A stretch of 64,000 nt of DNA from a bacterium (GTDB lineage Bacteria; UBA8248). Positions 1,086 to 60,392 of this stretch are shown piece after piece. The stretch covers positions 1,088,001-1,152,000 of the forward strand of contig CBDATS010000004.1 of the NCBI GenBank assembly GCA_965200245.1, read 5' to 3'. The notes under the pieces are model-generated. The model had not been told where the DNA came from. It saw only the letters and a program-made list of their open reading frames with translations, and searched no databases. Position 1 is the first letter of the stretch. The number at the start of each line of letters is the position of its first letter. A program made the position numbers and the translations under genes.

Positions 1086-3486
1086 TCACAGGCTTCGGAC
1101 GTTCCCGAGGCCACGCTGTTCAAGAATGGCCGCGAGGTTTGTCTTGGCGACATCGTCGGCAAAGGCGCTGTCGCGAAACACGATAGTGGTTTCGCTGGCT
1201 GGCGCGAGCGTGTCATGCCAGTCAGCGATCCCGGACGCCAGCGCCTCCACATCATCGCGGGAGATCGCTTTGCCGAGACAAGCGAGGAGCGTACCGGCAC
1301 CGACAGAGTGCACAGATTTGCCGGCAACAGTCCGGGTCTCAATGGGAATGCAAAGATCGAGACCAAGTTTCAACAACAACCCATAGAGGATGTCCTGCTC
1401 CGTGCGGTCGTGTTCGATGTGGTCGAGGCTGGAAAGAAAAGCACTCTCTAGATTGTCCGGCCTGGGATTCCATGGTCGTATGTTGGAAGTATCCAACTTG
1501 AAGACACGAAAACCCAAATCGCCATCGTAATCGGGGGTTTCGGTTTTGATCTTAATGCTGGCGCGGCGGAGCCGTTCCTTGGTAATTTCGGCGATATTGC
1601 ATGGCTTACGAAGCTTCTTGCAATATTCGGCAGCAGTTTTCTGATCTTTATTCTCTGCGCGGAGAGGTTCCGGTATTCTCTGCGCGGAGAGGTTCCGGAA
1701 ACTGAATGAGAAAATAGCGACGTTTTCCACCGTCTACCGAGTTCTGAATCAAGGTAGCACACCCCGTCGTTCCCGAACCTGCGAAAAAATCTAATACAAT
1801 ATCTTCTTGGTTAGAACCTTGCTCGATAACCTGGCGAATTAATTGTACTGGCTTAGGAAAATCGAAGACTCTTTCGTCAAACAACAAAGCAATATCCGAG
1901 GTTCCATCCCTCGCAAACACTTTTTCACCAATCACGGCAGAAAACCCAGTGTATTCCGAACCCAACTCTGTCAGGAACATTTTTCGTCTTGGACGTCCCG
2001 AGGAATCTGGAGGCCATAGTATTCGATCCTCCTTAATCAACGAATCCATTGTCCTTTTATCGTACCGCCAACCCATGTGTGGACACGCATAGAGTATTCC
2101 TGTATTCGGATTCAGCAAATCGTAGTGAAGGTTTGGTCGCCTATCCGCCGTGGCGATGCCTACCATATTCGCGCTTGCCCAATCACCGCGAGGGTCATTA
2201 TCAGGGTTGGAGTATTGGCTTTTATCTCGTTCATCTCCCCTTATTCTATTGCCATAGCAGATCATGTACTCATGATCGACTGACGCTCCGTTTACGCTTC
2301 GATTGTCTTTGTTTTGTCTACTCTTCCATATGAAGCACGCAAGAAAATTTTCTTCACCAAAAACTTCATCACAAATAAGTCGGAGAGCGGAAATTTTCCC
2401 GTCATCAATGCTCACAAATATTATGCCATCATGGAGGAGCAAGTTCTTCGCCGCTTTCAACCGAGGATACATCATGTTCAACCAGTCCGTATGAAACCGC
2501 CCCGATGTTTCGGTGTTCGATGTCAACTTACGGCTTTCACTGTCGACCTGCCCCGTCAACTCCAAGTAGTTTTGTATATTGTCGTGAAAATCGTCCGGAT
2601 AAACAAAATCTTTGCCGGAATTGTAAGGGGGGTCGATGTAAATGAGCTTCACCCTGCCAGCATAACTCTTCTGCAAGAGTTTCAGGACTTCCAGGTTATC
2701 ACCCTCGATCATCAGGTTCTGGGTCGTGTCCCAGTCGACGCTTTCCTCAGGACATGGCCGCAGTGTGCCGGTCGAAGGCGTGAGCGCAAGTTGCCGCGCC
2801 CGACGCTTGCCATGCCAGTTGAGGCCGTACTTCTCCTCACCCTCGTCCACGGTGTCGCCGAGAAGCTGACGGAGCACCTCTTCCCGGCTCGCTGCTTCCT
2901 CTGCCGTAACGGAACGGTGGAAGTCGCCTGTGATCGCGGCTGTCTGAAACGCCCGCACCGTGTCAACCCAGCCCCGGTAGAGGGTGTAGAGCGTATCCCG
3001 AGGCTGGCGGGCCAGGGCAAGAGCGTCGCGAAATGCTACGAGTTTTTCGTCGGCAGGGTCGCCACAGAACTGTGTGGCGACGATCTCACCGTCGATGACG
3101 ACTTTCCCCGCCTCCCCGAGCGACCGGCGTTTGTGAGCCAGCGAAATCTCCGGCTTCTCGTCCCACCAAACGATCAACAGCACCGGGTAGGGCACGGCAC
3201 GGTGGACCAGTTCGACCAAGCGGCTGGCACGCGCGGCAAGTCGTAGTTCTAGCTTCAGGACAACAATCTCAAGATATTCCCGCTCGGCATCGCGATATTC
3301 GGCAATTCCGATCGTCGCCGGCTTGAGTGTTGCGACCCATCTCAATTCCTCGATCCCTTCCCGGATGCGCCGCCGGTCGCCAACCGTGAACGCGCTGTTT
3401 TCAAGCAATAACGTCTTGGGCACACAGTGCTTGACGAACGCCTCAGGAGGGAGTGCAAGGGCTGCGAAGGGATCGAACGGCGTCAT
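1086..3486 (-). pseudogene. mod: DUF4391-like domain fused to type III R-M adenine methyltransferase Mod; frameshifted
   Basis: DPPY and FAGSG motifs, GDNLEVLKLLQKSY, FPKPVQLI, and C-terminal GFRVFKLDTSN...DDVAKTNL. Split between ORFs 1648..3486 and 1086..1730 by a 25-bp duplication. The first ~200 aa resemble DUF4391. Confidence 0.88.
1649..1698. repeat. 25-bp perfect tandem duplication inside mod
   Basis: TATTCTCTGCGCGGAGAGGTTCCGG x2 (1649-1673, 1674-1698). Confidence 0.95.
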
Positions 3487-6400
3487 GCCGAATCCTCCGG
3501 CAACACGGCGAGAAACGCCACCACCTCAAAATCGTCCATCCCGGCAAACTCACCGGGCATGACATGCGTGCCTCCCGGTACGAACAAACTCGCGATGGCG
3601 CGCTCCTCACCTATTCCAATGATAGAGGACACGGCGGCGGCGAGCAATCGCTGCGCAGCCCGCATGTCTTCGCCCCGACGGGTGGCAGCGTCGAAGCGGT
3701 TGCAGGCAAGGGCGTCCGGCATGTCCTTGCCGAGACAAAGTCGCTTTAGACGGTCGAGAACTGCTTTGGCTTGGGTGAACGGCAGGGGCACCAATCCGTC
3801 CTCACCGACATGAACGAGATAATGCGGCACCAAGGGATAGTCTGGCTGGAATCGGGTTTCGGCTCCGTTTCCCTCGGCGCGCAGACAAAAGATGATGCCG
3901 GGTGGAATGTCATCGGCCGTGACAGTGATTGCATGCACTCCGAGCGGAACCGATTCCAAGGCCTCCGGGTTGACCCTGCGATAGTCCGCCAGATCAATCC
4001 GGAAATCGGTTAGTGTCAGATCAGCGATCGAGACCCCTGAGGACAGGTCTTCGAGATCGATCACCGCATCCTAGAGCTTCAAAAGCTGTTTACGACGGTA
4101 AGCCAGATCGTTCATCGGATCGCCCGATTGCTGCTCGATCAGGTTTTCCTCGCCAGTGGCCGAGACGTCGAGCAACACCATCCTCCCACTCACCCGCTGC
4201 TCCAGACGGTGGTATTCCTCCAGTTCCATGTTAGGCCAAAAATTGACGAGTTGAATGCGTTCGTTGGGCGAGCCGATGCGGTCGATGCGGCCGAAACGCT
4301 GGATGATGCGAACGGGGTTCCAATGGATGTCATAGTTTATGAGCCAGTCGCAGTCCTGGAGGTTCTGGCCTTCGGAGATGCAGTCAGTCGCGATCAGAAG
4401 ATCAATTTCACCCTCACCTGCAAGATCATCTGGCCGTTCCTTGGTCCGGGGTGCGAAGGCGGTAAGGATGGAGACGAGGTTGTGCCGCAGGTCCGGCAGG
4501 GTCGTCCGGTTTTGCCCCGCACCGGTAACCAGTGCGGACTGTACTCCCAAGGAATCCCGCGCCCAAGGTGCCAACACGTCATAAAGATAACGTGCGGTGT
4601 CAGCAAATGCCGTGAAGACGATGACTTTACGGTTGCCAGTATTGATCGGAGCACTGCATTTCCGATCGATCATCTCGCGCAGTTCAGCAAGCTTGGCGTC
4701 GCGGTCGGTGGTCACCTGCCGGGCCGCGGCATGGAGCGTTGCTAGTCGGTTGCGGTCTTCGATCAAATCCTGTCGCCAGCGGACCGGGTCGACATCCTGG
4801 AGCAGAACCTTGACCTTGCGGCCGACCAGAAGGCTTTCGAAGGCCGGGTCCTCAATGTCGATGTCTCCGATATCGAGTTCCTCAAGTTCGTCGTTTTGTT
4901 CCTCTATGCGCGCCAGGAGCACCTCGACATCGGCCAACTGACGCTGAACGGTCAGGGCGAACGCGACGACCGAACTTTCCATGCGCTTCAGTACATTCAC
5001 GCGAAGAAGCTGGATAAGGCTCTCTTCGCGATCCTTTTGCCGGAAAGTCCCGTCTCCACTGCGAAGTCGGGTACTGTATTTTGTGTCATATGCCTCTTGC
5101 CTGTGCGGCAGGACATAGCGAAGCGGCGCATAGGCGGCAAGGTTCAGGCGGCGGATCTCCGCATTGATTTCGTGGATCGAAGGGAATTTTCCTGCGAGAT
5201 CGACATCCGGTTTGACATTAACCGGCCTGAGACGCTCCGGAAAACGGCCTGTTTCACGGTCTCCATAGTACTTTTCGAGGTGCCGGCGAGAGCGGGCAAT
5301 CGTGAGACGGTCCAATAACGTAAAATAATCGAACCCCAACATGTCCACGAGCCGAGATGGTGTGCGTTCGCTTTCGCCAAGTTCGAGCCAGCGGTTGAAC
5401 TGCTTCTGCGCACGTTGCGTCGTGCCGTCGATACTGGACACACCGTGATCCGACAGCGCCTTGTCGTCACCCTCGGTGGCGAAGGCGATCTGGTTGCGGA
5501 GATCGACCAAACGATTGTCCACAGGCGTGGCAGAAAACATGAGGACCCGGGTTTTCACACCTTCCCGGACGATCCGGCGCATGAGCCGGTCGTACCGCGT
5601 CTCACTGCCCTGACGTGGCGAACGCTTGTTGCGGAAATTGTGTGACTCGTCGATGACGACGAGATCGTAGTTGCCCCAATTCACATGGGCGAGATCAATA
5701 TCGCCCGATCTGCCACCGTCGCGAGATAGGTCGGTGTGATTGAGAATGTCGTAGTTAAAACGATCGCGCGCGAGGATGTTGCGACAGTCATTGGCACAGT
5801 AGAGGGTCCAGTTGTCGCGTAGCCGCTTCGGGCAGAGTACAAGGACGCGATCATTGCGAAGTTCGTGGTATTTGATGATAGCCAGCGCCTCGAAGGTTTT
5901 GCCAAGCCCGACGCTGTCGGCAATGATGCAACCGCCGAACCGTTCGAGTTTGTCGATGGCGCCAATGACCCCGTCACGCTGGAACTTGAACAGTCTCTTC
6001 CAGACTTCCGTGTTGCGAATCCCAGTCTCCGACTTGACGACCCGCTCTTCGTCAAGTTCGCCATCCTCGGTTCGAAACAGGTGGTGCAAGATCAGCGCGT
6101 AGATGCTGGACGGAGCCTGGTGCACAGCAAGTCGGCGCAAAGCAGCCACCAAGTCCTGCTTACCGGCGCTATTTTCCGTGAGCCCGGACCATTGCGCATC
6201 GAACCATGCGCCCAGCCGTTCGCATTCTTCGGGCGTCTCGGAAGCCTGAATCAGATTGAGAGGATTGCCTGGTGCAAGGCCCAATCCGTCGGTGCTGAAC
6301 GAAAATGAACCGAGCAGAGCTTGCTCTGAGCGACCGTCGCCATTGCGCAACACGATAGCCCCCTGTGGGACCGACCCGTTCGCTCTGCGCGCATCGGCTA

Positions 6401-6677
6401 CTTTTTCGATCCAGGCCGCACAATGGCCGGCGAGCCAGCGGCCTTGCGGACGATTGCGTACCGTTCGGTCCACAGCAGACCCCAGCAGGTCGAGGTCGGC
6501 ATCATCAGGTGGCAAAACGATCCGCGCGCTAGTCATCCGCGCCAGATTTCCGGCAAGTTCTCCAAAGGCGAAGAGCGATAGCGTTAGGGAAGCAAGGTCG
6601 ACCCGATTGCCGGCGCTTAGCCAAGGCCGGATAATATCGACCACGCGATCGGAACCGGTGTTGGGAACGAGTCTCAT
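3483..6677 (-). pseudogene. SNF2-family helicase associated with type III R-M; one in-frame TAG
   Basis: ADSVGLGKT, DESHN, SATP, SEGQNLQ and QRFGRIDRIG motifs. ORFs 4071..6677 and 3483..4064 are in the same frame (KL*DAVIDLEDL), giving ~1064 codons. Confidence 0.88.
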
Positions 6678-7118
6678 CGTGGGTTGGCAATCCAGTGACT
6701 GACGGTCTTGATACCAGTGTTGCAGAATTCACACATGTTCCGCGCTACCACAGCAAGGCCCCGACTTGTTGTCTCTGCCACAAGAGAGGCGTTCGGAACA
6801 TGATCGTAGAGCAACTCTCCATACCGGCTCTTTTCTCTCACGATCTGCGCGCCCGGGCGTCGGCTATAGTCCAGTCGACGATTCGGTCTTCGAACCACGC
6901 GTCAATTAAGATCATGGAACCACTCGGCGAACCCATCCGGGTGATAGCCAAGGGCCTGACGACCGATAACGTTGAGAATCTCCGAGACAATGATGGAAGC
7001 GAAGTCAAGGTCTTTCTCGGTGATTGAATCGAGAATGCGGCAATTCGTGGCTCGGGCTGAGGTGCATCATTTCAGATACGACGTCTGTGTCGATCAACCA
7101 CGCAAGCAAGACAATCAC
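6674..7118 (-). pseudogene. VapC/FitB PIN-domain toxin, degenerate
   Basis: Manual translation: WLIDTDVVSEMM / RIAAFLDSITEKDLDFASIIVSEI ... NASLVAETTSRGLAVVARNMCEFCNTGIKTVSHW. PIN pattern with a frameshift, a stop and altered acidic residues. Confidence 0.7.
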
Positions 7119-19231: not shown

Positions 19232-19933
19232 ATGGCGCAACTACCGATTCTGAGTGATGAGGAGGCCGGCCCCGAGGCCGCCGTGGTGTTCGACGCGAGC
19301 CGCAAGATGTTCGGACGCGTGGCGAACGCCATCCGCGTGAGTTCGGCCAGCCCGAGAATGCTTCAGCCGCTTTTCGGTTTTCTGATCTCGCTGTGCCGGG
19401 CGGAAATCACCGATGTGCTGGACGCAAGGACAAAGGCGCTGCTCATTCTCAAGACCTCGATGGAAAACGGGTGCAAGTACTGAACGGCGCACAACGTCAC
19501 GTTCGGTCGAGCGTGCGGGCTGTCGGATGCGCAAATCGACGCCCTGAGGGACGACGCCTATCAGGAATCGGACCTGTTCACGGACCCGGAGAAGGCGGTC
19601 ATCGCCTGGGCCTATCACCTGACGAAATACACTTTCGCCAGGCACCCCGAAGCTCTCGAGAATATGAAGAAGCATTTCGATCACGCCCAGATCGTCGAGG
19701 CGACGCTGGTGTCTGGCTATTTCAACATGTGGAACCGTTTCACCGACGCGCTCGAGACCGATCTCGAGGGCGATGACCAGATGACCCTGTTTACCAAATC
19801 CGCCGTGATCGACAGGGATGTCTTCGCGGAGTTCATGAACGAGTGCTGGTGGGCGCAAGAGGACACAGCCAGGGAGGAGAAAAAACACTCTCCGCTTCCG
19901 CCGGTTCAGGAGCGTGATTTGCCAAGTTCCTGA
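19232..19933 (+). CDS. AhpD/carboxymuconolactone-decarboxylase family selenoprotein (CxxU)
   Basis: ORFs 19232..19483 and 19664..19933 are in frame. Read-through gives TSMENGCKY-U-TAHNVTFGRACGLSDAQIDAL...EKAVIAWA...FDHAQIVEATLVSGYFNMWNRFTDAL, with UGA at the second Cys of the AhpD CxxCxxH motif. Confidence 0.9.
19495..19517 (+). promoter_or_regulatory. Candidate bacterial SECIS element
   Basis: CG-U-CACGUUC-GGUC-GAGCGUG-CG hairpin starting 12 nt after the UGA, with a bulged U and a GGUC apical loop like E. coli fdhF. Confidence 0.75.
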
Positions 19934-33901: not shown

Positions 33902-34891
33902 CTAGGCCAGAGAGCCCCCGCACGACGAACCGGCCCCGGCCGTGCAGCCGAAGCAGTGATCGTCCAGCAGGATTTCGCGGCCCAGCAGTTCGGCGGGCGC
34001 CACGTCCCAAAGCCTGAGCGGCCTGCCGTTGCCCAGGGACATATTGAGCATCTGGTTGAAATCGCAATCATACAAGACGCCGTCCCACCCCACGCTGATG
34101 AGGTTTCGACACATCAGGCCGGGCAGCGTCTCGGAGTTGTAGGCTTCGCGCAACGTATCCATGTAGGAATCCAGCTTGCCGTTCGCCTTCAGATAACCGG
34201 CAAACCGGGCAATGGGCATGTTGGTGATGGTGTAGAGTTGATGAAAGCGGATGCCGTAGCGCCTGAGGAGTTCGCGTTTGTAGTCCGCCTCAAGCGCCTC
34301 CTGCGGCGGAGGGAGGTTGTCGTCCACGGGATTGTAGACGAGGTTCAGGGCCAGATCTCCCGGCGGGCCGAACCCCGCTTCGTTCATATCCTGCAGCGCG
34401 CGGATGGATTTTTCAAAAACGCCGTCCCCGCGCTGGGTGTTCACGTTCTCTTCCAGATAACACGGCAGCGAGCAGATGAGTTCCACGCGGTTCTCGCGGT
34501 AGAAATCTATCAAGTCTCCCTGACCCGGCTCATACACGACCGTGAGATTGCAGCGAACCATGACGTGGCGGCCCTTGCGGCGGGCGCTGGCTACAAGCCG
34601 CCTGAACTGGGCGTTGAGTTCGGGGGCACCTCCCGTGATGTCGACGTTGGGTATCGACGTCTCCTCAAGCCATTCGATGATGCGGCTCGCCGTCTCCTCG
34701 GTCATGATCTCCTTGCGGTGCGGGCCCGCGCCCACGTGACAGTGCGCGCAAGTCTGGTCGCAATACTTTCCTACGTTGACCTGCAGTGTGGAAAGTTCGG
34801 TGCGTTCCAGGCGGGGCGCGTCCTCCCGTATGCGGTCCATGAATCTGACGGCCCCGTTCGAGGATAGAGGCAAGGAAATGCTTGCGGGCAT
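33902..34891 (-). CDS. arsS: Radical SAM/Cys-rich domain protein, ArsS family
   Basis: LQVNVGKYCDQTCAHCHV (CxxxCxxC), DITGGAPE, YDCDFNQML, HCFGCTAGAGSSCGGSL. Confidence 0.9.
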   Translation of the reverse strand: MPASISLPLSSNGAVRFMDRIREDAPRLERTELSTLQVNVGKYCDQTCAHCHVGAGPHRKEIMTEETASRIIEWLEETSIPNVDITGGAPELNAQFRRLVASARRKGRHVMVRCNLTVVYEPGQGDLIDFYRENRVELICSLPCYLEENVNTQRGDGVFEKSIRALQDMNEAGFGPPGDLALNLVYNPVDDNLPPPQEALEADYKRELLRRYGIRFHQLYTITNMPIARFAGYLKANGKLDSYMDTLREAYNSETLPGLMCRNLISVGWDGVLYDCDFNQMLNMSLGNGRPLRLWDVAPAELLGREILLDDHCFGCTAGAGSSCGGSLA

Positions 34892-34943
34892 CGTTTCTCC
34901 CGAGGAAATGACTTCGTTCAGTGACGCATTCGGAACAGGTGGC

Positions 34944-35339
34944 TTAAGCGGTCCGTACCAGTTTCCTGCGAAGCGATTTGATGCGTCGTCTCACGCGCTT
35001 GATTTGAACACCGTCTTTCGCCTCGATGTGTTGATCCCGCATGCCCTTGAGAGCCTTGATTTGCTGTTTGACGGCGCTTCTGTCGAGCTTGGAGGTGCGC
35101 TTCGCCTCGATCAACGGAATATCGTTTATCTCCTTGAGTGCCCGGATCAACTGTGTCTTGTCCATTCCGTGGACGCCCGAGATTCTTCCGCCGTAAGCCA
35201 GAGCGGCCTCCTTGAGCTTGGGCACGTTCATCTTGTCGATCTCTTTCGCCGTAAGAGCGGGGCCCGCCTGTTCAGGCGCCTGCGTTTCCCCGGAAGCCTC
35301 CGCTTCGTTTCTTCCTTCTTCCGCCATTTCACTCTCCAT
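34944..35339 (-). CDS. Small basic protein with Rho N-terminal-like helical domain
   Basis: IDKMNVPKLKEAAL...ISGVHGMDKTQLIRAL followed by a basic coiled coil. Confidence 0.7.
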   Translation of the reverse strand: MESEMAEEGRNEAEASGETQAPEQAGPALTAKEIDKMNVPKLKEAALAYGGRISGVHGMDKTQLIRALKEINDIPLIEAKRTSKLDRSAVKQQIKALKGMRDQHIEAKDGVQIKRVRRRIKSLRRKLVRTA

Positions 35340-43518: not shown

Positions 43519-43674
43519 AAACTCCCTCTGCATGCCCATTTCCTGCCAATCGGGATGCGCATCCTGAAACTTCATTCCTGCCTGCAGTGCGCAAACCTGC
43601 TCGATTCTGCTACCTTATGGCCGGATGAATCTCCCATATTCATGAATCGTCGTATTTCTTACAGGAGTGCGTTC

Positions 43675-44862
43675 GTGCAGGAACATTCTCTACCACTGTC
43701 CCGTTTCAAGGTTCTGGATCTTACCCGCGCGCGGGCCGGCCCCACGGCAGTTCGCCAGTTCGCGGATTGGGGGGCGGACGTCATCAAGATAGAAGCGCCG
43801 GCAGGAAGCGGCTTTTCGGACAACATGGCCCAGCCCCGTCACGGGTACGAGGCGCAGAACCTGCACCGCAACAAGAAGGGCATGACACTCAACCTGCGCG
43901 AGGAGAAGGGTCGCGGGATATTCTTCCGCATGGTGGAAGGCGCCGATGTTGTCATCGAGAACTACCGGCCCGACGTGAAGCACCGCCTGGGCGTGGACTA
44001 CGAAGCGTGCCGCGCGGTGAACCCGCGCATCGTCTACGGAAGCATTTCCGGTTTCGGGCAGGAGGGGCCCTACCGCAAGCGACCGGGGCTGGACCAGATA
44101 GCCCAGGGACTGAGCGGTCTCATGTCCGTCACGGGCAGGCCGGGGGACGGACCCATGCGGGTGGGCATTCCCCTCGCCGACCTCTCGGCGGGGTTCATGC
44201 TCGCGCAGGGGCTTCTCATCGCACTGCTCGAGCGCGAAGTATCGGGTGAGGGACAGTGGGTGCACACCTCGCTTCTCGAAGCCCAGATCCAGATGATGGA
44301 CTTTCAGGCCGCCCGGTATCTCCGTTTCGATGAAGTGCCCACCCAGCAGGGGAACAACCACCCCACCTTTTTGCCGGCGGGCGTCTTCGAGACGGCGGAC
44401 GGGCGCATCAACATCCAGTCCGGCCCCCAGCATCTCTGGGAACGTCTCGTGCACGCGCTCGAGATGCCCGAACTGCTCGAGAATCCCGACTATGCGGATA
44501 TCCCCAGGCGCTTCGAAAACAAGGTGGCGCTGCAGGAGACCATCGCGCGTCGGACGAAGACGAAATCGAGTGCCGAGTGGATAGGGATTCTCAACGAGGC
44601 GGGAATCCCTTGCGGTCCCATCTACACGGTGGACGAGACGTTCGCCGACCCCCAGGTCAAGGGTCTGAACATGGCACCCGAGGTGGATCATCCCGAGATC
44701 GGGCCGATCAAGATCGTCGGCCAGGCGGTCAAACTCGCACGAACGCCGCAGAAAATGAGAGGCGCCGCGCCCGAGATGGGTGCGCACACGGAGGAGATTC
44801 TGGGAGAATTGGGCTACGATGCGGACTCAATACGCCAATTGCGCGATGAGGGCATCGTCTAG
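43675..44862 (+). CDS. Class III CoA-transferase (CaiB/BaiF family)
   Basis: VLDLTRARAGP, GADVIKIE, HRNKK, ENYRP, SISGFGQ.GP, PLAD, APEMGAHT. Confidence 0.95.
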   Translation: MQEHSLPLSRFKVLDLTRARAGPTAVRQFADWGADVIKIEAPAGSGFSDNMAQPRHGYEAQNLHRNKKGMTLNLREEKGRGIFFRMVEGADVVIENYRPDVKHRLGVDYEACRAVNPRIVYGSISGFGQEGPYRKRPGLDQIAQGLSGLMSVTGRPGDGPMRVGIPLADLSAGFMLAQGLLIALLEREVSGEGQWVHTSLLEAQIQMMDFQAARYLRFDEVPTQQGNNHPTFLPAGVFETADGRINIQSGPQHLWERLVHALEMPELLENPDYADIPRRFENKVALQETIARRTKTKSSAEWIGILNEAGIPCGPIYTVDETFADPQVKGLNMAPEVDHPEIGPIKIVGQAVKLARTPQKMRGAAPEMGAHTEEILGELGYDADSIRQLRDEGIV

Positions 44863-44893
44863 GAACGATCCTGCCCCCTCGGGGGCGCAGCGT

Positions 44894-45700
44894 ATGGAGC
44901 AAGGCATGCAGTTATCGACGGAGAAGATGGCTTACGAGGTGGACGACGGTATCGGCTGGATGATCTTCAACAACCCGGAGCGAAGGAACGCGCTCTCACT
45001 CGAGATGTGGGGGGCCATCGCCGAGATACTTAACTGGTATGAGGCCGACGACGCCATTCGCGTCGTGGTGATGAAGGGCGCGGGCGACAGGGCGTTCGTC
45101 TCGGGCGCGGACATCTCACAGTTCGCAAAGAACAGGAGCAACGCCGAGCAGGCCGCCGAATATACGCGGATATCCGAAGAGGCCAAACAGGTCATGGGGG
45201 ACGTGAAAAAACCCCTGATCGCGATGATCCGCGGTTACTGTCTTGGCGGCGGGCTGGGAATCGCGTTGAACGCGGACATCCGCATCGCGGCGGATGATTC
45301 GCAGTTCGGAATCCCCGCCGGGCGTCTGGGCATCGCCTACGGCTTCGACAACCTGAAACAACTCGTCGACCTGGTGGGACCCGCCAGGGCGAAGGAGATT
45401 CTTTTCACGGCCCGGCGCATTCCGGCGACGAAGGCACTTGAAATCGGACTGGTGAACGAGGTGGTGCCCGTGGATGAACTCGAGGATTACGTGATGGACA
45501 TGGCCTCCACCATCGCGGACAACGCGCCGCTTTCGGTCAAGGCGTCGAAGCTCACCATTGGCGAAGTGGTGAAAGACGGCGCGGATCGCGATTTCGAGAT
45601 GATCGCGAGGCTTTCCGAGGAATGCTTCAACAGTGCCGACTACAAAGAGGGCCGCACCGCGTTCATGGAAAAGAGAAAACCCGTCTTCACGGGCCGATAA
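44894..45700 (+). CDS. Enoyl-CoA hydratase/isomerase family protein
   Basis: NNPERRNAL, AFVSGADI, CLGGGL, FGIPAGRLG, EGRTAFMEKRKPVF. Confidence 0.93.
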   Translation: MEQGMQLSTEKMAYEVDDGIGWMIFNNPERRNALSLEMWGAIAEILNWYEADDAIRVVVMKGAGDRAFVSGADISQFAKNRSNAEQAAEYTRISEEAKQVMGDVKKPLIAMIRGYCLGGGLGIALNADIRIAADDSQFGIPAGRLGIAYGFDNLKQLVDLVGPARAKEILFTARRIPATKALEIGLVNEVVPVDELEDYVMDMASTIADNAPLSVKASKLTIGEVVKDGADRDFEMIARLSEECFNSADYKEGRTAFMEKRKPVFTGR

Positions 45701-45722
45701 TCCGCCGGGCCGGGAGAATCCA

Positions 45723-46304
45723 GTGAACGATGAGAGATTCGTCAACGTCATCTCTCCCGAGGGTATCCCCAGGATACCGGATGAAGCGCTCAATCCCAGG
45801 CCCGGGACGCTGGGGGGCGCCACTCTCGGAATTCTCGAGAACAACAAGGAGTTTTCCGACTGGGTGCTGGACAGGGTGCGCGAGAGGCTTCGGGATTCCT
45901 TTGACATCAAGAACGTCGTCCAGCGCTGCAAGCATCACCTCGCCCAGCCGGCGGCACCTGAAATTCTCGAAGAACTGAGCGCAAACTGCGATGTCGTCAT
46001 GGTCGGTGTGGGCCACTGAGGCTCTTCCACGTCGTGGAGTGTCCGCGACGCGGTCCGGCTCGAAAGGCTGGGGAGTCCCGCCTGCGTTATCGTGAGCCGG
46101 GGCTTCAGCTACAGTGGGCGCGCGATAGCGCGCAGACAGGGCTATGGCGGCCTGCCTGTCATCGAGATGGATCACCCCCTCGCCGCTCCCGAAAGGGATG
46201 CGCTTCATCCGAAGGCGGACGCCATCGTGGAGGAAGTCGTTTTCGCCCTCACGCGCAACGCGGAGAAAAAATTCCGGGGGCCGGTGAATCTTTGCCCGAA
46301 ATAG
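45723..46304 (+). CDS. UGSC-family selenoprotein (U-G-S-S variant)
   Basis: ORFs ending 46019 and 46092..46304 are in frame: LGILENNK...CDVVMVGVGH-U-GSSTSWSVRDAVRLERLGVPACVIVS..F...HPLA. UGA at 46017-46019 sits at the redox position of the family motif. Confidence 0.88.
46030..46050 (+). promoter_or_regulatory. Candidate bacterial SECIS element
   Basis: CGUCGUGGA-GUG-UCCGCGACG hairpin starting 11 nt after the UGA, with GU in the apical loop. Confidence 0.72.
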
Positions 46305-46316
46305 GGGAGAGGGGAT

Positions 46317-47389
46317 TTGGCCGGGAACGCAGGAAACCCCGCCTCCGGGGCGGGCAGGCGGATTCTGCCGATCGCGGGTTCCCTCGAAGAGGTGAACACC
46401 TATTTCTACGAGCACGGCTGGACGGACGGCCTGCCCATCGTCCCGCCAACGCGCGAACGGGTGGAGACCCTGCTCGCAGGCTGGACGGACGACCGGATGA
46501 GGAGATCGCGGAAGTTCCTCCGCTAATGGGGGTGGCAACGGTACGTGCCGTCGCGGTGAACGCCGTGATGGCGGGATGCTTGCCCGAATATCTGCCCGTG
46601 GTCGTTGCGGCCCTGTCCGCCGCCACCAAGCCGCGCTATGGGCTCAGTCACCGTCAAACGACGACTCACCCCGCCACCGCGCTCATCATCGTGAACGGTC
46701 CCATCGCCAAGCGGCTCAGGATTAATTCGGGTTCGGGCCTGTTCGGCCCCGGCTGGCGGGCGAACGCGACGATAGGCCGTGCGCTCAGGCTATGCCTCAT
46801 CAACCTGGGCGGCGCCGTTCCCGGCGAGGTGGACCGCGCCCAGCACGCACATCCGGGGAAATACACCTACTGCATTGCGGAAAACGAAAGGGCGAACCCC
46901 TGGGAGCCTTATCACGTCGAGCGCGGCTTCGCGCCGATGGAGAGCACGGTGACACTCACCTGCGGCGAGGCCCCCCACTGCATCACGGACAACTACAACA
47001 CTGACCCCCACACGCTTCTTTTCGGCTACGCGGACTCGATGGCCACACTGGGCGGGAACAATCTCTCCTCCCAGGGAGAGCCCGCCCTGGTCATGGCGCC
47101 CGAACACGCCGCCTGTATCGCACAGGCGGGCTGGAGCAAGGCGGACGTGAAACGCTACCTCTTCGAGAAGGCGAGGAAACCCTGGAAGCATGTGGGCGTC
47201 CGGGGAAAATCGAAAGGCCCGACCTTTCCTGTCTGGGTCGACAGGACGGACCCCGAAGCCTCCGTGCCCATCCTTACCCACGCTGACGCCCTCATTCTCA
47301 TCGTGGGGGGAGGCGAGGGCCAGAAATCCATGTGGACACCCACCCCCGGCGCGCAGACGCTGAGCGTGATCGAAAAAATCCGGGAATAA
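46317..47389 (+). pseudogene. UGSC-associated conserved protein with apparent 1-nt frameshift
   Basis: GWTDGLPIVPPTRERVETLLAG in ORF 46317..46526 continues as RPDEEIAEVPP...AVNAVMAGCLPEYLPVV...GWRANATIGRALRL in another frame; shift near 46480-46490. Confidence 0.75.
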
Positions 47390-52073: not shown

Positions 52074-52980
52074 AGGGGTGGAGCAGCGGGCACCCTGCAT
52101 CCATGTTCAGTGCATCGGAAGCACATGTATCCGTCATTCTCAATAAATCAGAAGTCATGCGAATCGCGCCTCGCTTTTTTCCCGGGGAATCGCTCCGGAA
52201 AAATCGTCAAGCCAGACAAGGAGGCAGAAAATGGAATCGTTGCCGCTTAACGAAATCCTGACCGTTTTCCTGACCATGATTGTTGCAGTACCAGTGGCGC
52301 CCCGGGCAAAATCTACGCAGGATCAGGTAAAATCAGGGGAATTGCATATCAGGGATGACGGGCGACCCGATCATCGGTGAAGCTTGAGCGAAAGCAAAAG
52401 AGACCAATCGTGACCCGGCGCTTTCTCTGCCGCATCGCCCGCAGGAGGCAGTCTCAAGTCCTGCGTCCCTGTACTGATATCCCGTCGAATTCAATACGGG
52501 AACAAGCCACCGGCACCATCGGGAAAATCGCGGGATTCCAGCCTGAAGCGCATATGATTGAACCCGGGGGAGACGACTGGGAGGCCGCTTCCGGGCAATC
52601 CCCCGGGAGAGATCCGGCTGATTCCGGCCTCTTGAGGGGACCCTGCGCAAGATAGCGGTCCGGGCGCACCTGCGACACAGCTGGATATGGCATCTGTTCA
52701 GGTCGGATGCCCTCATCCATGGTCCTGTTCAGGGAGTCATCTCCCTTTTCCCCGCACGCAGGCTCCCCTCCATTCCCTGTCCGATCCGTTGCTGCCCTTG
52801 TCCTGCAGCGGAAAAAGCTGCACATAACTCATCATTATCAATGTTAGACATGCGGCTTCCTCAGGGAACATGGTTACCACCTGTCCAGGGAGAGAATTGC
52901 GACATGCTCGGAATCCGGAATTTCTTCGGCGGTTTCAACTTGACAAGTCGGAAATGTACCCGACACGATCGCATCGCCGG

Positions 52981-55900
52981 ATGCGTACCATGAGAGCGGT
53001 GACAGGATGGTGGGGCTGCCTGGGCGGTCAGGTTTCTGCGTCCGAACCCTGCCTTTCCCTTCCCGCCGGCCGACGCTCCGCATCCCGCGGCCGCGCGTCA
53101 TCCTTCAGGGGTTTCGGACCCTGCGTCCTTGTTGGTCTGCTGCTGGCCGTTCTCCTCGCCAACCCCGCCGCCCTTGCAAACAACGAATGCGGCGACCCGC
53201 CCACCAGCGGTGGCGAGATCATATGCGACGGAGACGATCAGACCAATGCTGGGAGCGGCATCAAGTACTCGTTCCCCAGCACCGACACCGACGACTACAC
53301 CATCAAGATACAGGCAAATTCAGGCGGCACCATCAAGACCGGATCCGGCGCGAGTGCAGGCTCCGGGGCCGACGGCATCTACGTTGAAAAGCTCGGCACC
53401 GGACCCTCCAGCATCACCCTGTCGGGCGGCAGCATCCATACGAAAGGAAACGATGCCCTAGGCATCCATTCAAAAACCTCAGGCAACACCGCATCCATCG
53501 TCATGTCGGGCGGCAGCATCGATACGGAAGGGGAACGGGCCCACGGTATCCAGGCATTTCCCCACCATTCCGGCCCAACAAACACTGGCAACATCAATAT
53601 CGGCCTGAAGATCGGCAGCGTTGGCACCGGAGATTGCATGAGCAGCACCGGTTCTGGCTGCGACATCCATACAATAGGATCGTACGCCAGAGGCATCTTT
53701 GGCGACGCTGAGGTCGAACAGAAAGGCCCAAACTATTACCATCCGAGCGGCACCGTCGACATCTCCATGTCCGGCGGCGACATCCTGACGGAAGGGAGAG
53801 GCGCCCACGGCATCCATGGCCGGCACGAAGGTACCGGCAAGCTCACCGTCAACATGACCGGCGGCACCATCACGACAACCGGAAACAGCGCCTACGGCAT
53901 CTACGTACAGCGCACATGGACCGGCGACCTCGACCCCGTTGTGGTCGAGAACAGCACTATCTCCGCGGCCGGTGCGGAAGCGATCCGGCTCAACGCCGTC
54001 CCCGCCAAGATTCTGAGGCTCCGGAACAGCACGATCGAACGCGGCAACGCCGGAGACGCGATCTGGTTCAGCGGCAACACCGACGACACCCTGACGGTCC
54101 TGGGACATGAGGACGCCGGCATGACGGCCACGACCACGATCGGGGGCGATGTGGCCTTCGGCGGCGGAACCGACAGGCTCGTCTTCAACGCCTGCCTGCA
54201 GGCCGATGTCGACGACACGGGCGATACCGACTGCACGGCTGCCTATGGCGAGCTGAAGATAAGCCATACCGGCATGCTCATCGGTCTCGAGAATATCTCC
54301 AAGATCGGCTCGGGCACCGTCCGGCTGGGCGACCTGACAAGCCGGGGCAGCACGATGGCGCTGGAGGACGGTGACCTGCGCCTCACCGGCCATCTCGATC
54401 TGGGCGCCTCCGGGACGCTCACCATCCACGACGCGTCGCGGCTGATCTTCGGGGCCACGTACGACGATCAGGGCCAGCGTACTCACGGCAAGATTACCGC
54501 CGAGAAGGTGAAGTTCGACGATCCGGACTGGCAACGGCTGTTCATGGAGGATGGCGCGCTGGCGGCGGGCGATGGTATGCTCCTGGATGCGGGGAAATTC
54601 TACAAGGCCAACGGCATCACCAAGGTCGTTCCGGGGCTTTACGACCTGAACGACGCGATGCTGACGACGGTTTCGGTTGACGGTATCGTGCAGGCAGTGG
54701 ACGGTAACGAATGCGGCGACCCGGTATCGGGGACCGTTACCTGCAACGAGTTCACCTACATCTACCAGACCGACGATGCCGTCTCCCCCGCCGACCCCGG
54801 CATCGAGTACGAGTTCTCAGATACCAACGACTACATCATCAAGCTCCAAGACGGTCTTGGCGTCGACACGACAGAAGAGGATGACAGCGGCCTTTTTGGA
54901 ATGCACCGCAGCGGCGGTGACTTCACCATCGCCATGTCGGTCGTCAGTGGCAGCGACCCCGACATCCATACCGAAGGAGACAACGCCCACGGCATCCATG
55001 GGATGCACTCCGGCACCGGCGACATTGAAATCAATATGAAGGACGGCCGCATCCGCACCACAGGACGAGACGCCTACGGCATCTACGGAAGACGCGCGGC
55101 CAATGCCGGCTGCAATACCGACCCCGAAGACTACAACTGCGATATCACCATCAGGATGTCCGGCGGCACCATCGATATCAGCAGTGGTCACGGCATCGCC
55201 GGCACACACCGCAGCGGCGGTGACTTCACCATCGCCATGTCGGTCGTCAGTGGCAGCGACCCCGACATCCATACCGAAGGAGACAACGCCCACGGCATCC
55301 ATGGGATGCACTCCGGCACCGGCGACATTGAAATCAATATGAAGGACGGCCGCATCCGCACCACAGGACGAGACGCCTACGGCATCTACGGAAGACGCGC
55401 GGCCAATGCCGGCTGCAATACCGACCCCGAAGACTACAACTGCGATATCACCATCAGGATGTCCGGCGGCACCATCGATATCAGCAGTGGTCACGGCATC
55501 GCCGGCACACACCGCAGCGGCGGTGACTTCATGGTCATGGTGAGCGGCGCGACCATCTCGTCCGCTCAGGGAAACGCAATCAATCTCAATACCGAAGGCA
55601 CGGCGACTGTAGAGATCGGAGCCGGCACCACGGAGATCAGGGGCAACATCGCTGGGGCTGACAAGCTCATATTTAACCCGCTCATGGCCACGGACGAACT
55701 GACCTTCGTCCATACTGGCATGATCACGGGAGCCCCGCCCATTTCCAAGATTGGCTCGGGCACAGCTCGGCTGACCGATCTGGGCGCGGCGGGTGCGATG
55801 ATGTCGCTGGAGGACGGCGACCTGCGCCTGACGGAGGCCGTCCTGGAGGGGTATCCGGTGCGCAGGGGAAGCGGTCCGGACGGGCGTTCGGTGAGGTTCG

Positions 55901-56681
55901 GGCTCCGCGGGGGTTCCGGAACCCGCGCCGTCTCCCTCGACATGGACCTGCGTCTCGGGGCGTCGGTGGCCCCCCTCGCCGAGGCGTTCTCGGATTCCCG
56001 GGACGAATCGGCCGAGGTCGAGCTCACGGGCGAGGTCTACGCGGCCGGTCTGGGCTGGCGGGGAGACGCGTTTTTCTCCGACGTGGCGCTCGCCCACGGC
56101 CGCTCGCGCGTATCATCACGGACGCTGGAGGCCACTGGCCTGTTCAGGGGCTCGTTCGACGTGAAGCAGACCCATGCCGAAGCGAGGACAGGTCGGCTGT
56201 TCCCCGCCGGAGGCATGCGCATCACCCCGTCGGTGTCGGTGTTCGCCGGTTCCCTGGACCACGGGGGCCACACGGCGGAGGGCGCGGTGATGAGGGCCGA
56301 GATCCCGGGCTACTCGCAGGACTACCGGGGATGTCGGGCCGGGGTGGAGGTCGCGACGGCGGAGTGGCTGGAACTCTCCCCGCGCTGCGCTGGCGGCCCG
56401 ACCTGCAACTGGATCTGGCACACACCACGACGGACGGACCGGAGACGCTGACGGTGCGCAAGGCGGACCATGCCGGGGTCATAAGCTTCCCCGAGAAAAA
56501 ACGGGTGATCGGCGTGCCCCGGGAGGCGTTCCGCCTCGGTCTGGGCGTCACGCTGAAAGGCAGTTCGGATGCCTGGAGCCTGCGCCTCGGTTACCGGGGA
56601 GAATGGACCGGCGGCGAGGACGAATGGGCCGGCCGTGAGGACGAACATTCCGTGCAGGCGGGCTTCTCGATACGGTTCTAG
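52981..56681 (+). pseudogene. Autotransporter-like surface protein with beta-helix repeats; frameshift in the beta-barrel (start uncertain)
   Basis: Signal-like ...LLAVLLANPAALA, many I.T.G..AHGI repeats, and an alternating-strand C-terminus ending VQAGFSIRF in ORF 56331..56681. Frame change near 56375. Confidence 0.78.
54904..55531. repeat. 303-bp in-frame tandem duplication (2 copies plus 22 bp)
   Basis: The unit starting CACCGCAGCGGCGGTGACTTCA recurs at 54904, 55207 and 55510; the 101-aa block HRSGGDFTIAMS...HGIAGT is repeated. Confidence 0.95.
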
Positions 56682-58763: not shown

Positions 58764-59558
58764 TCAAATCCCTGTCAGCACTTTCGCATCATCGACGTTC
58801 GCGATTTCGCGGCCCATTTCCCTTGCAATGCGCGCGATGCGTGCGACGTGATCGGCATTGTCGCCGAGTTCACCGGGGTAAAGGTAAGGCTCATCCTCGG
58901 TACCCACACGCACGTGGCCGCCGTGCATGACCGCCATCGTCTGCATGTGAATGTGCCTGGAGCCGGTAGCGCTTGTGATGTAGATCGAATCCGCGGGCAG
59001 ATTGGAGACGCGGTGCAGGAACTCGCTCAGGGAAGGCGGCGACCACGCGCCTCCCGGACGCCCGAAGAAACACGTCATCAGAATGGGCGGTTCCAGGAGC
59101 CCTTTCTGGAGCAGATCGTCGATCATCCAGGTCTCGCCCAAGGTGAAGACCTCGAATTCCGGCTTCACGTTATAGTTCCTGCAAAGCCGCATCATCTCGG
59201 CGAGTTCCTCGCGGGGGTGAAGCATCATCACGTCGCGCGCGATGAAGGCCATGTTGTGCGCCCCCACGGCGACGGACATCATCTCGGGGTAGTTCTTCAC
59301 CACTTCCTTTCGCTGCTCGACCGTCTGGGTCGAGATGCCATACTGGAGCATGATCCCGCATCTCTCCCTGATGGCCCTGGAGTGTGACGCCCAGGCCTCG
59401 TAGTTCGTGGGCGGTGCGTGGATGTGGGCGATGCACGCGCCCGCCTCGCAGGCCTTTTCCACAGAATCGGCGAGGACTTCGGAATCCGTGAAACGCGCGG
59501 GAACACCCTCGTGCATCGAGGTGTCCGCCGCGCAGTTGATGATCATCATCTTTTCCAT
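58764..59558 (-). CDS. Beta-keto acid cleavage enzyme (BKACE/DUF849)
   Basis: EAGACIAHIH, KPEFEVF, GGHVRVGTED, DNADHVARI. Confidence 0.9.
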   Translation of the reverse strand: MEKMMIINCAADTSMHEGVPARFTDSEVLADSVEKACEAGACIAHIHAPPTNYEAWASHSRAIRERCGIMLQYGISTQTVEQRKEVVKNYPEMMSVAVGAHNMAFIARDVMMLHPREELAEMMRLCRNYNVKPEFEVFTLGETWMIDDLLQKGLLEPPILMTCFFGRPGGAWSPPSLSEFLHRVSNLPADSIYITSATGSRHIHMQTMAVMHGGHVRVGTEDEPYLYPGELGDNADHVARIARIAREMGREIANVDDAKVLTGI

Positions 59559-59588
59559 GAACCGCTCCTTTATGATGCCGGAAATCCA

Positions 59589-60392
59589 TCAGGCCATGCC
59601 GAGTATCTTCTTCGTCTCATCGACCGTGGCCGGGTCGCGGCCGAGTTCGTGACCGATTCGCGCGATGCGTGCGACGAGCTGCGCGTTGTTCTCGCACAGC
59701 ACGCCCTCGGTGTAGTAGGGCTCATCCTCGGTTCCCACGCGCACGTGGCCCCCCTCGATGATGGTGACGGTCTCGAGCGCGTTCGAGGTGGGCCCTGCGC
59801 AACTGCACGAGAACACACACCCTTCAGGCAGGTGGTCGATGCGGTGGAGAAGTTCCCTGAGCGTCGCGGGGGCGTAGAAGCCACCCGGCCAGCCGAAGAA
59901 GATGGTGATGACGACGGGGTTTTCCACCAGTCCCTTGTCGAGCAGCCACTCCAGATTCCACAGGTGGCCCAGGTTAAAGCACTCGAACTCGGGCTTCACG
60001 CCGTAATCGTTGAAAAGGCGTACCTGATCCTCTATCTCCTGGCGGGAGTGTTCCACCAGCAGATCGGCGTCGACGAAGGCGAAATCATGGGAGCCCAGGG
60101 CGATGGAAGCCATATCCGGCTTCAGGTGGATGATCTTTTTTCGCCCAGGGAGGCCCATTGCGGCGATCCCGAACTGGATCAGCACCTCGGGACAGGCCTC
60201 GCGTACCGACTCGGTGAGCGGTTCCCAGCTTTCGAGTTGCATGGGGATGCCATGGATGTGGGCGATGGCCGCACCCGCCTCGTGGCTTTCCCTGACCTCC
60301 CTGGCAACGGCTTCGGGCGTCTGCAACCGCTTGGGGACGCCCGCGTGCTTGCGGCTGTCCGCCGCGCAGTTGGTGATGATGAGTTTCTCCAT
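59589..60392 (-). CDS. Beta-keto acid cleavage enzyme (BKACE/DUF849), second paralog
   Basis: EAGAAIAHIH, KPEFECF, GGHVRVGTED, NAQLVARI, ATVDETKKILG. Confidence 0.9.
   Translation of the reverse strand: MEKLIITNCAADSRKHAGVPKRLQTPEAVAREVRESHEAGAAIAHIHGIPMQLESWEPLTESVREACPEVLIQFGIAAMGLPGRKKIIHLKPDMASIALGSHDFAFVDADLLVEHSRQEIEDQVRLFNDYGVKPEFECFNLGHLWNLEWLLDKGLVENPVVITIFFGWPGGFYAPATLRELLHRIDHLPEGCVFSCSCAGPTSNALETVTIIEGGHVRVGTEDEPYYTEGVLCENNAQLVARIARIGHELGRDPATVDETKKILGMA

Follow-up and report, generated by a model that had tools for sequence, protein, structure and literature searches.

The 64,000-nucleotide (nt) stretch analyzed here (the window; positions 1,088,001 to 1,152,000 of contig CBDATS010000004.1, assembly GCA_965200245.1, from a bacterium of the GTDB lineage UBA8248) has a G+C content of 58.8% and contains, at 45723-46304 on the forward strand, a 193-codon reading frame in which the TGA at 46017-46019 is the sole internal stop. 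Read with selenocysteine (Sec) at this codon, the frame encodes a protein of the UGSC family, and the peptide around the codon is VGVGH-U-GSSTSWSVRDA. An earlier inspection of the DNA letters, called here the sequence-only reading, had noted the in-frame TGA, this peptide and an open frame to 46304; when the frame was read again, the same was found. The open reading frames listed under translation table 11 split the gene in two, at 45633..46019 and 46092..46304. We are highly confident that 45723-46304 is a genuine Sec-coding UGSC gene. The best explanation overall, to which we give a probability of about 0.8, is a single 193-residue UGSC selenoprotein whose UGA is recoded and which is linked to a partner, the 357-residue product of the next gene.

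In public annotations, the UGSC gene is systematically mis-annotated: it is cut at the TGA into two "hypothetical proteins" (related loci L001-L014; protein matches P0274-P0354). The database matches include 83 short ones, which fall into 54 N-terminal and 29 C-terminal fragments. Fifty of the 54 N-terminal fragments stop exactly at ...GH, and a typical one is 98 residues long and ends in GVGH. The C-terminal fragments are 78-91 residues long (78, 86 and 91 residues) and begin at varied internal codons, as an arbitrary choice of start by gene callers would give. In one example of such a split, the two halves carry the neighbouring locus tags OXL41_13790 and OXL41_13785.

A single scan of species-representative genomes yielded 14 related loci, from close relatives only, all of them in metagenome-assembled genomes (MAGs); five are labelled Nitrospinota or Nitrospinaceae and nine are labelled "bacterium". 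The TGA lies at the same codon in 14 of 14, the peptide VGVGH*GSSTSWSVRDAV is identical, and the frame stays open to ...NLCPK* (NLWPK in L007). Clade comparisons in what follows refer to 15 sequences, the window plus these 14 loci. If the TGA were a true stop, the locus would hold either two small separate genes or one gene killed by a nonsense mutation. The ratio of nonsynonymous to synonymous substitution rates (dN/dS), taken over 105 pairs, is 0.20 upstream of the TGA (codons 2-98) and 0.14 downstream (codons 100-172). In the 70 codons past the TGA, 2-4 stops close the +1 frame in every one of the 15 sequences, and the +2 frame has 1-3 stops in 13 of them. The in-frame UGA is conserved in 15/15 sequences, and coding constraint holds before and after it.

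Scored with Cys in place of Sec, the read-through protein (P0001) gives 149 bits with Pfam PF24696 ("UGSC family"), for which the cutoff is 25 (1.9e-43). Residues 10-177 align with positions 3-171 of the 172-position profile, so that the match runs across the TGA and bears out the family assignment made by the sequence-only reading. Among 1.84 billion representatives, searched exhaustively with HMMER, there were 902 relatives at E<=1e-3. The full-length relatives among the best 150 of these 902 carry Cys at the position of the window's TGA, and in a set of 127 members the family Cys in this column is nearly invariant (at least 90%). The Cys-type homologues P0125, P0127 and P0137 (H-C-G-[SA]-S) cover the TGA site as single proteins; P0125 and P0127 are continuous; homologues in the form of two separate genes are what the sequence-only reading had named as refuting its proposal.

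The Cys at the +3 position, from which the UGSC family takes its name, is missing: the window has Ser there, as do all 14 related loci. The sequence-only reading had described the motif as U-x-x-S with a preceding His, and both Ser at +3 and His at -1 occur in 15/15 clade sequences. Downstream of the motif column come G-S and then [TS]-S-W, as in the family. We classified the motif in 143 rows, made up of the window, six of the 14 loci and 136 of the best 150 representatives, after exclusion of eight fragments and six proteins that were long or atypical. D-C-x-x-C accounts for 103 rows, all of them among the 136 representatives. H-C-x-x-S is found in 10 rows, namely the window, the six loci and three of the 136 representatives (P0125, P0127 and P0137). 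The remainder are x-C-x-x-C (10 rows), D-C-x-x-S (7), H-C-x-x-C (4) and nine other forms of one row each. The D-C-x-x-S forms show that the +3 Cys has been lost elsewhere in the family too.

A quick maximum-likelihood tree was made from 187 columns, with the five motif columns removed and support given by the Shimodaira-Hasegawa-like approximate likelihood ratio test (SH-aLRT). The window and the six loci group together (SH-aLRT 100), the window protein has a short terminal branch (0.14), and the group is nested in an 11-row clade (SH-aLRT 99) that also has P0125 (HCGAS), P0127 (HCGSS), P0168 (QCGAS) and P0251 (LCTDT). The protein P0137 (H-C-G-A-S), in which UGSC and the partner are fused, is placed outside this clade. 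Cys is absent from +3 in every member of the 11-row clade, so that its loss is a clade trait; most members have His where the family has Asp at -1, and the Nitrospinota-labelled branch would be the Sec-using part of that clade. The window and its 14 related loci do keep other cysteines, C121 in 15/15 sequences and C191 in 14/15.

The UGSC family has been published before, both as a family of selenoproteins and with its fusion partner. In the available portions of the UGSC and selenoprotein literature outside the subscription journals, the motif appears as UGSC or UxxC only, and no U-x-x-S form, His-Sec form or relationship to selenoprotein B is mentioned. The function of UGSC is still listed as unknown in the accessible part of a 2026 review (PMC13188914).

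AlphaFold2, run with a 127-sequence alignment, gives a single compact α/β domain with a predicted local distance difference test (pLDDT) score of 93.1 and a predicted template modelling (TM) score, pTM, of 0.87. Three strands of the model precede Sec (residues 34-39, 64-69 and 91-97) and two follow it (120-125 and 146-149), with Sec itself lying where strand 3 ends and helix 3 (100-115) begins. Since strands from both sides of the TGA belong to one domain, the halves, if the model is right, cannot be independent proteins. The Foldseek matches listed from the PDB have query TM values of 0.31-0.49 and are mostly NAD(P)H-FMN reductase folds or flavodoxin-like ones; none of those listed is a thioredoxin structure. 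A "likely Trx-like fold" was suggested for UGSC in 2008, in the available text of PMC2398784; the flavodoxin-like matches and the lack of thioredoxins among those listed leave that proposal of a thioredoxin-like fold unsupported. The UGSC protein is thus predicted to be one flavodoxin-like α/β domain. A profile search of PDB sequences with UGSC gave chance-level matches only (E 0.18 and 0.34).

A second relationship emerged when the 127 UGSC members were scanned with NCBIfam at E<=1. TIGR01917 (glycine reductase selenoprotein B) was matched by 58 of the 127, with a best value of 2.6e-5, followed by GrdF (32), TIGR01918 (30), PrdB (24) and GrdH (19); at E<=0.005, 18 of 60 UGSC members match selenoprotein B models. 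In these 18 the placement is constant: UGSC residues of about 56-186 align with positions 304-422 of the 431/435-position GrdB-type models, or with 120-194 of the 238-position PrdB. This matched C-terminal part of the models is presumably the Sec-bearing region. Given a best family-wide score of 23.3 bits versus a cutoff of 602.2, we read the similarity as suggesting distant homology of the Sec domain and not membership.

Downstream of the TGA lies a hairpin resembling a bacterial selenocysteine insertion sequence (SECIS). Folding of RNA 46010-46080 gives the stem CGUCGUGGA / GUG / UCCGCGACG. The sequence-only reading had reported a 9-bp stem with a GU-containing loop some 11 nt past the UGA, and the fold agrees with it: the stem occupies 46030-46050, the loop is GUG, and the start is the 11th nt. 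A loop about 19 nt past the UGA and the G/U content of the loop agree with the usual description of bacterial SECIS elements. The 17-nt core of the hairpin, TCGTGGAGTGTCCGCGA, is invariant in 15/15 sequences, and synonymous-site entropy over codons 104-110 is 0.058, compared with a gene mean of 0.58. In the covariation count, 10 of the 11 hairpin pairs never vary. The comparison thus indicates a conserved hairpin, with a structure that covariation does not prove.

The UGSC gene is followed by one for a 357-residue protein, which is intact and adjacent to UGSC in 13/13 loci whose contigs extend that far. Homologues of this partner make up 7980 of 8000 scored candidates; the best are 93-96% identical and 357 residues long, and all are unnamed or "hypothetical". 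No Pfam or NCBIfam model matches the partner, and an Atlas look-up gave only clusters of "hypothetical protein", with none for P0127. The two proteins also occur joined in one chain. By BLASTP, the fusion P0129 (D-C-G-S-C) shows 41% identity to the partner, and the fusion P0137 shows 56%; 16 of the 150 best UGSC matches are 392-563 residues long, and in 14 of the 16 the partner domain aligns in all four motif blocks examined. The Global Ocean Sampling (GOS) study describes, in the text available of PMC2398784, a fusion of UGSC with "Unknown_1". From the fusions found here, Unknown_1 is probably the 357-residue partner family. In seven of the 127 UGSC members (e.g., P0173 and P0188), a C-terminal NifU-like domain, PF01106, is present instead of the partner; this recurrent fusion hints at iron-sulfur or redox chemistry.

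Nearly all partner homologues have a Cys in V-M-A-G-C, and another lies in Y-x-C-I-A-E. A further motif differs between lineages: among the 109 of 120 homologues in which it was found, it reads C-G-E-A-P-H-C in the U-G-S-S lineage (21) and N-[AT]-E-A-P-H-S elsewhere (88). It is tempting to tie this Cys pair to the U-G-S-S form of UGSC; as an association within one lineage, it is a lead only. The predicted structure of the partner (AlphaFold2, pLDDT 79.2) has no Foldseek match in the PDB at E<=1e-3, and a profile search of PDB sequences with the partner stayed at chance level (E 0.65). Class I fumarate hydratase came up as a possible fold, with a best Foldseek E of 3.5e-3 and a TM of 0.25, and was treated as no match.

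The sequence-only reading had called the UGSC gene the second hidden selenoprotein of the stretch. The first is probably a gene at about 19232-19933, whose read-through product matches the carboxymuconolactone decarboxylase (CMD)/AhpD family (PF02627, 1.6e-7) in an alignment that spans its TGA. A 7-bp hairpin lies about 15 nt downstream of that TGA, with a fold z-score of -0.03, and the gene itself ends in TGA. A second selenoprotein-like gene in the window gives indirect support for Sec decoding in this organism. The same scan for in-frame TGA codons flagged a tandem pair of beta-keto acid cleavage enzyme (BKACE) genes; this candidate was rejected, as the pair is two complete genes separated by an ordinary stop. 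In the available part of the BSepDB report (PMC13326102), the ten bacteria with the most selenoprotein genes include three MAGs that bear the label Nitrospinota, Nitrospinaceae or Nitrospinae (GTDB UBA8248) and have 48-54 such genes each.

The features of the locus and the other genes with in-frame TGA codons are given in Table 1. Upstream of UGSC, the family III CoA-transferase (CoA, coenzyme A) is the first gene of a conserved four-gene run, and its position is kept in 13 of the 14 loci, that is, in every locus whose contig reaches it; the enoyl-CoA hydratase, which ends 22 nt before the UGSC start, is kept in 14 of 14. Where contigs allow, the order of genes is TAXI-TRAP transporter (TRAP, tripartite ATP-independent periplasmic), tRNA-Pro, CoA-transferase, enoyl-CoA hydratase, UGSC, partner and an amino-acid ABC (ATP-binding cassette) transporter. 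With gaps of 22 and 12 nt between hydratase, UGSC and partner, these three genes are probably co-transcribed. The CoA-transferase comes closest to the model for succinate--glutarate CoA-transferase, whose cutoff of 750 bits it does not reach (266 bits). A carnitine-type role for this enzyme and the hydratase was considered and dropped, L-carnitine CoA-transferase scoring 130 bits versus the 266. Upstream, on the opposite strand, lies an L-2-hydroxyglutarate oxidase gene (549.5 bits versus a cutoff of 299). The neighbourhood hints at dicarboxylate or CoA-ester metabolism and leaves the role of UGSC unstated.

Table 1. Features at the UGSC locus and other in-frame TGA genes of the window (window positions).
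Feature	Position	Strand	Remarks
UGSC-family selenoprotein gene (predicted)	45723..46304	+	GTG start, one in-frame TGA, TAG stop 46302-46304; 193 codons
In-frame TGA, read as Sec (U99)	46017..46019	+	aligns with the family Cys; TGA in 15/15 clade sequences
Motif H-U-G-S-S	46014..46028	+	family consensus D-C-G-S-C; invariant in 15 clade sequences
SECIS-like hairpin	46027..46053	+	9-bp stem 46030-46050, loop GUG 46039-46041, two outer C-G pairs
Partner gene, 357-residue family	46317..47389	+	starts 12 nt past the UGSC stop; disrupted by a 1-nt deletion after 46492
Family III CoA-transferase	43660..44862 (start approximate)	+	PF02515, 6.5e-115
Enoyl-CoA hydratase	44780..45700 (start undefined)	+	PF00378, 1.5e-56; NF004781 383.6 bits versus 291
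CMD/AhpD-like gene with in-frame TGA	~19232-19933	+	TGA 19481-19483, motif C-K-Y-U
Tandem BKACE genes	58767-60392	-	each a full Pfam model, in-frame TGA between

Other parts of the window deserve a brief description. A radical SAM (S-adenosylmethionine) protein with a C-terminal DUF3641 is encoded at 33905-34990 (-); some members of the radical SAM/DUF3641 family are linked to selenium or arsenic metabolism. An open frame of 1207 codons at 52828-56448 (+) has high third-position G+C, and Pfam recognises in it no more than an autotransporter beta-domain, within its last third, so the product is predicted to be a large surface protein with an uncharacterised passenger domain. At 1651-6728 (-), a gene with DUF4391 and an N6/N4 DNA methylase adjoins a SNF2/helicase gene in what looks like a restriction or defence-type module, where third-position G+C is below that of the rest of the window.

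Several observations weigh against a partner-linked UGSC selenoprotein. The NCBIfam equivalog NF041046 (UGSC_fam) gives the read-through protein 120.3 bits, under its cutoff of 125. Several canonical D-C-G-S-C members are also under the cutoff (for example, P0128 at 120 and P0148 at 116). The PDB matches of the model are generic, with query TM <=0.49 and target TM <=0.52 among those listed. The window protein (at E<=1), P0125 and P0127 have no GrdB or PrdB match, and of the 56 Pfam families that the 127 members match, the 25 matched most often do not include GRDB. As for the hairpin, its fold energy alone is within chance for G+C-rich DNA (z = -1.48, with 14 of 200 shuffles equal), and codons 119-124 show equally frozen synonymous sites. 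The sole variable pair (15-33) is a G-U in one case and does not form in 4 of the 12 distinct rows; these rows, with 10/11 pairs invariant, contain no compensatory changes. Around the hairpin, Rfam has no family at the gathering threshold nor at E<=10. The fusion P0137, although of the H-C-G-A-S type, keeps A-P-H-S in its partner domain, and the correlation with the partner cysteines therefore rests on one lineage. Within the 64 kb window there is no selA, selB, selD or tRNA-Sec. Lastly, the locus itself is altered in this genome: the partner gene has a one-base deletion after 46492 (46491-46493) relative to L001, L006, L011 and L013, and the UGSC protein is seven residues shorter in its C-terminal tail (46248-46271), with 193 residues versus 200 in 14/14 loci.

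How far do these points carry? The hairpin is at chance level as a fold; comparison with relatives (the 14/14 loci, dN/dS and the invariant core) raises the finding as a whole above chance. A true stop at the TGA would account for the split of the locus by gene callers everywhere, for the 83 short matches that are N- or C-terminal fragments, and for the lack of Sec machinery in the window. It would not account for an identical TGA in 15/15 sequences with purifying selection on both sides (0.20 and 0.14), for alternative frames that are closed in 15/15 (+1) and 13/15 (+2), for continuous Cys homologues, for a predicted sheet that requires both halves, or for fragment starts that vary as those given by gene callers would, and we regard it as very unlikely. 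That the UGA is read through with some other residue, by near-cognate insertion of Trp or Cys or under an altered code, seems if anything more improbable still. The lack of Sec machinery in the 64 kb leaves room for such a reading; yet TGA terminates ordinary genes in this window (the BKACE pair and the CMD-like gene), the residue aligned in homologues is Cys, the hairpin lies at the usual place, and three MAGs labelled Nitrospinota, Nitrospinaceae or Nitrospinae rank among the ten most selenoprotein-rich bacteria of BSepDB (PMC13326102).

Two further alternatives accept the gene and question what it does. UGSC could be a stand-alone redox protein with one selenol, such as a peroxidase or thiol oxidoreductase recycled by a small thiol, to whose chemistry the partner is irrelevant. 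Glutathione peroxidases use a single Sec, and most UGSC representatives are unfused proteins of about 170-215 residues. Reviews, in the portions available, place UGSC among the redox selenoproteins of Trx-like fold and unknown function (PMC2398784, PMC13188914), and Table 2 of the former offers a U-x-x-S precedent in its ArsC 1 row. Set against this are the adjacency in 13/13 loci, the recurrence of fusions (16 of the 150 best matches, of 392-563 residues) and a model whose best PDB matches are flavodoxin-like, with no thioredoxin among those listed; a stand-alone protein is a possibility that we take seriously and still hold to be unlikely. The gene family could also be real and the UGSC/partner module be decaying and non-functional in this genome. 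The deletion in the partner, absent from 13 related loci, shifts the frame past G-W-T-D, so that only in the window does tblastn return the partner in two pieces. The UGSC tail reads …LTRNAEKKF in the window and …LTGDAGELRAEYAEKKF in the 14 related loci, and the protein has unique changes such as R69C. Speaking for an intact module, the UGSC frame, TGA, motif and hairpin are unbroken, the missing residues belong to the low-confidence end of the model (pLDDT 52-62), the terminal branch is the short one noted above (0.14), and single-base indels are a common assembly error. The module may therefore be inactive or decaying here, or the assembly may contain an indel error; that the module has lost its function in this genome we consider rather improbable.

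If UGSC is a partner-linked selenoprotein, what would its single selenol do? We infer every chemical step that follows. Recoding of UGA 46017 to Sec would be aided by the hairpin at 46027-46053. UGSC would then serve as the subunit that carries Sec, as redox centre or nucleophile, in an enzyme of two parts, with the 357-residue protein as the other part; that the two act together is, in our judgment, somewhat better than an even proposition. The selenolate, at the N-terminus of helix 3 and beside His98, would be the nucleophile or redox centre, and its target may be a substrate, or an oxidised group, that the partner holds, a suggestion that draws on the distant similarity to the Sec region of selenoprotein B. 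Without the +3 Cys, no local Se-S bond such as that expected for U-G-S-C would form, and another thiol would resolve the Se adduct. The UGSC clade cysteines C121 and C191 and the two lineage-specific cysteines of the partner are thiols present besides the selenol. Candidates for the resolving thiol would be Cys216, Cys222, Cys88 and Cys186 of the partner, Cys191 (14/15) or Cys121 (15/15) of UGSC, and a small thiol or external reductant. Resolution by a thiol outside the motif is a tentative proposal, to which we give slightly less than even odds. Alternatively, the chemistry could proceed without any resolving thiol. The sequence-only interpretation is supported in part, namely in the UGSC family, the His-U-x-x-S motif and the concealment of the gene by annotation, and the mono-selenol chemistry that it put forward would be plausible.

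A broader and bolder scheme can be drawn, and we think it improbable as a whole. In it, UGSC and its 357-residue partner would constitute a widespread, uncharacterised enzyme of two subunits or one fused chain, and the Sec/Cys domain would share its stock with the Sec domain of selenoprotein B of the Stickland reductases. Within the lineage labelled Nitrospinota, the role of resolving thiol would have passed from the +3 position of UGSC (C to S) to the partner (N..S to C..C), giving an inter-subunit selenenyl-sulfide relay with a His-Sec dyad, and the substrate would come from the pathway of the co-transcribed CoA-transferase and hydratase.

Irrespective of the details, the locus is useful in three ways. 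The U-G-S-S form, which occurs in nature, keeps Sec and not the +3 Cys, so that what each of the two motif residues does can be told apart. The firm link of UGSC to a very large unannotated family provides biochemists with a defined two-protein system. Finally, the weak but consistent tie to the selenoprotein B reductases suggests chemistry to examine.

Comparison with known systems places the locus as follows. Many UGSC members share with selenoprotein B (GrdB, GrdF, GrdH, PrdB; TIGR01917, TIGR01918, TIGR04483) a weak, consistently placed similarity over its C-terminal ~100 residues, and PrdB is given as a U-x-x-C selenoprotein in Table 2, the part available, of PMC2398784. Unlike GrdB, UGSC lacks the N-terminal ~330 residues; unlike the Stickland reductases, it is accompanied in the window by no pyruvoyl subunit gene that we could see, and its context is one of aerobic-type CoA-ester and transport genes. 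With the ArsC-type arsenate reductase form (ArsC 1 in the same table of PMC2398784) it shares Sec with Ser at +3; the families are unrelated, and the likeness is one of motif listing and not of compared sequences or folds. The 'Unknown_1'-fused UGSC of the GOS study, as described in the available text of PMC2398784, probably has the same protein as neighbour or fusion partner. The closest relationship is to the UGSC family as such (PF24696; NF041046; the "UGSC-containing protein" of Zhang & Gladyshev), with a full-length match to the family's hidden Markov model and Sec or Cys in the same column. Within that family, the window protein differs from the main body in having Ser and not Cys at +3 and His and not Asp at -1, and it falls in a separate clade with P0125, P0127, P0168 and P0251.

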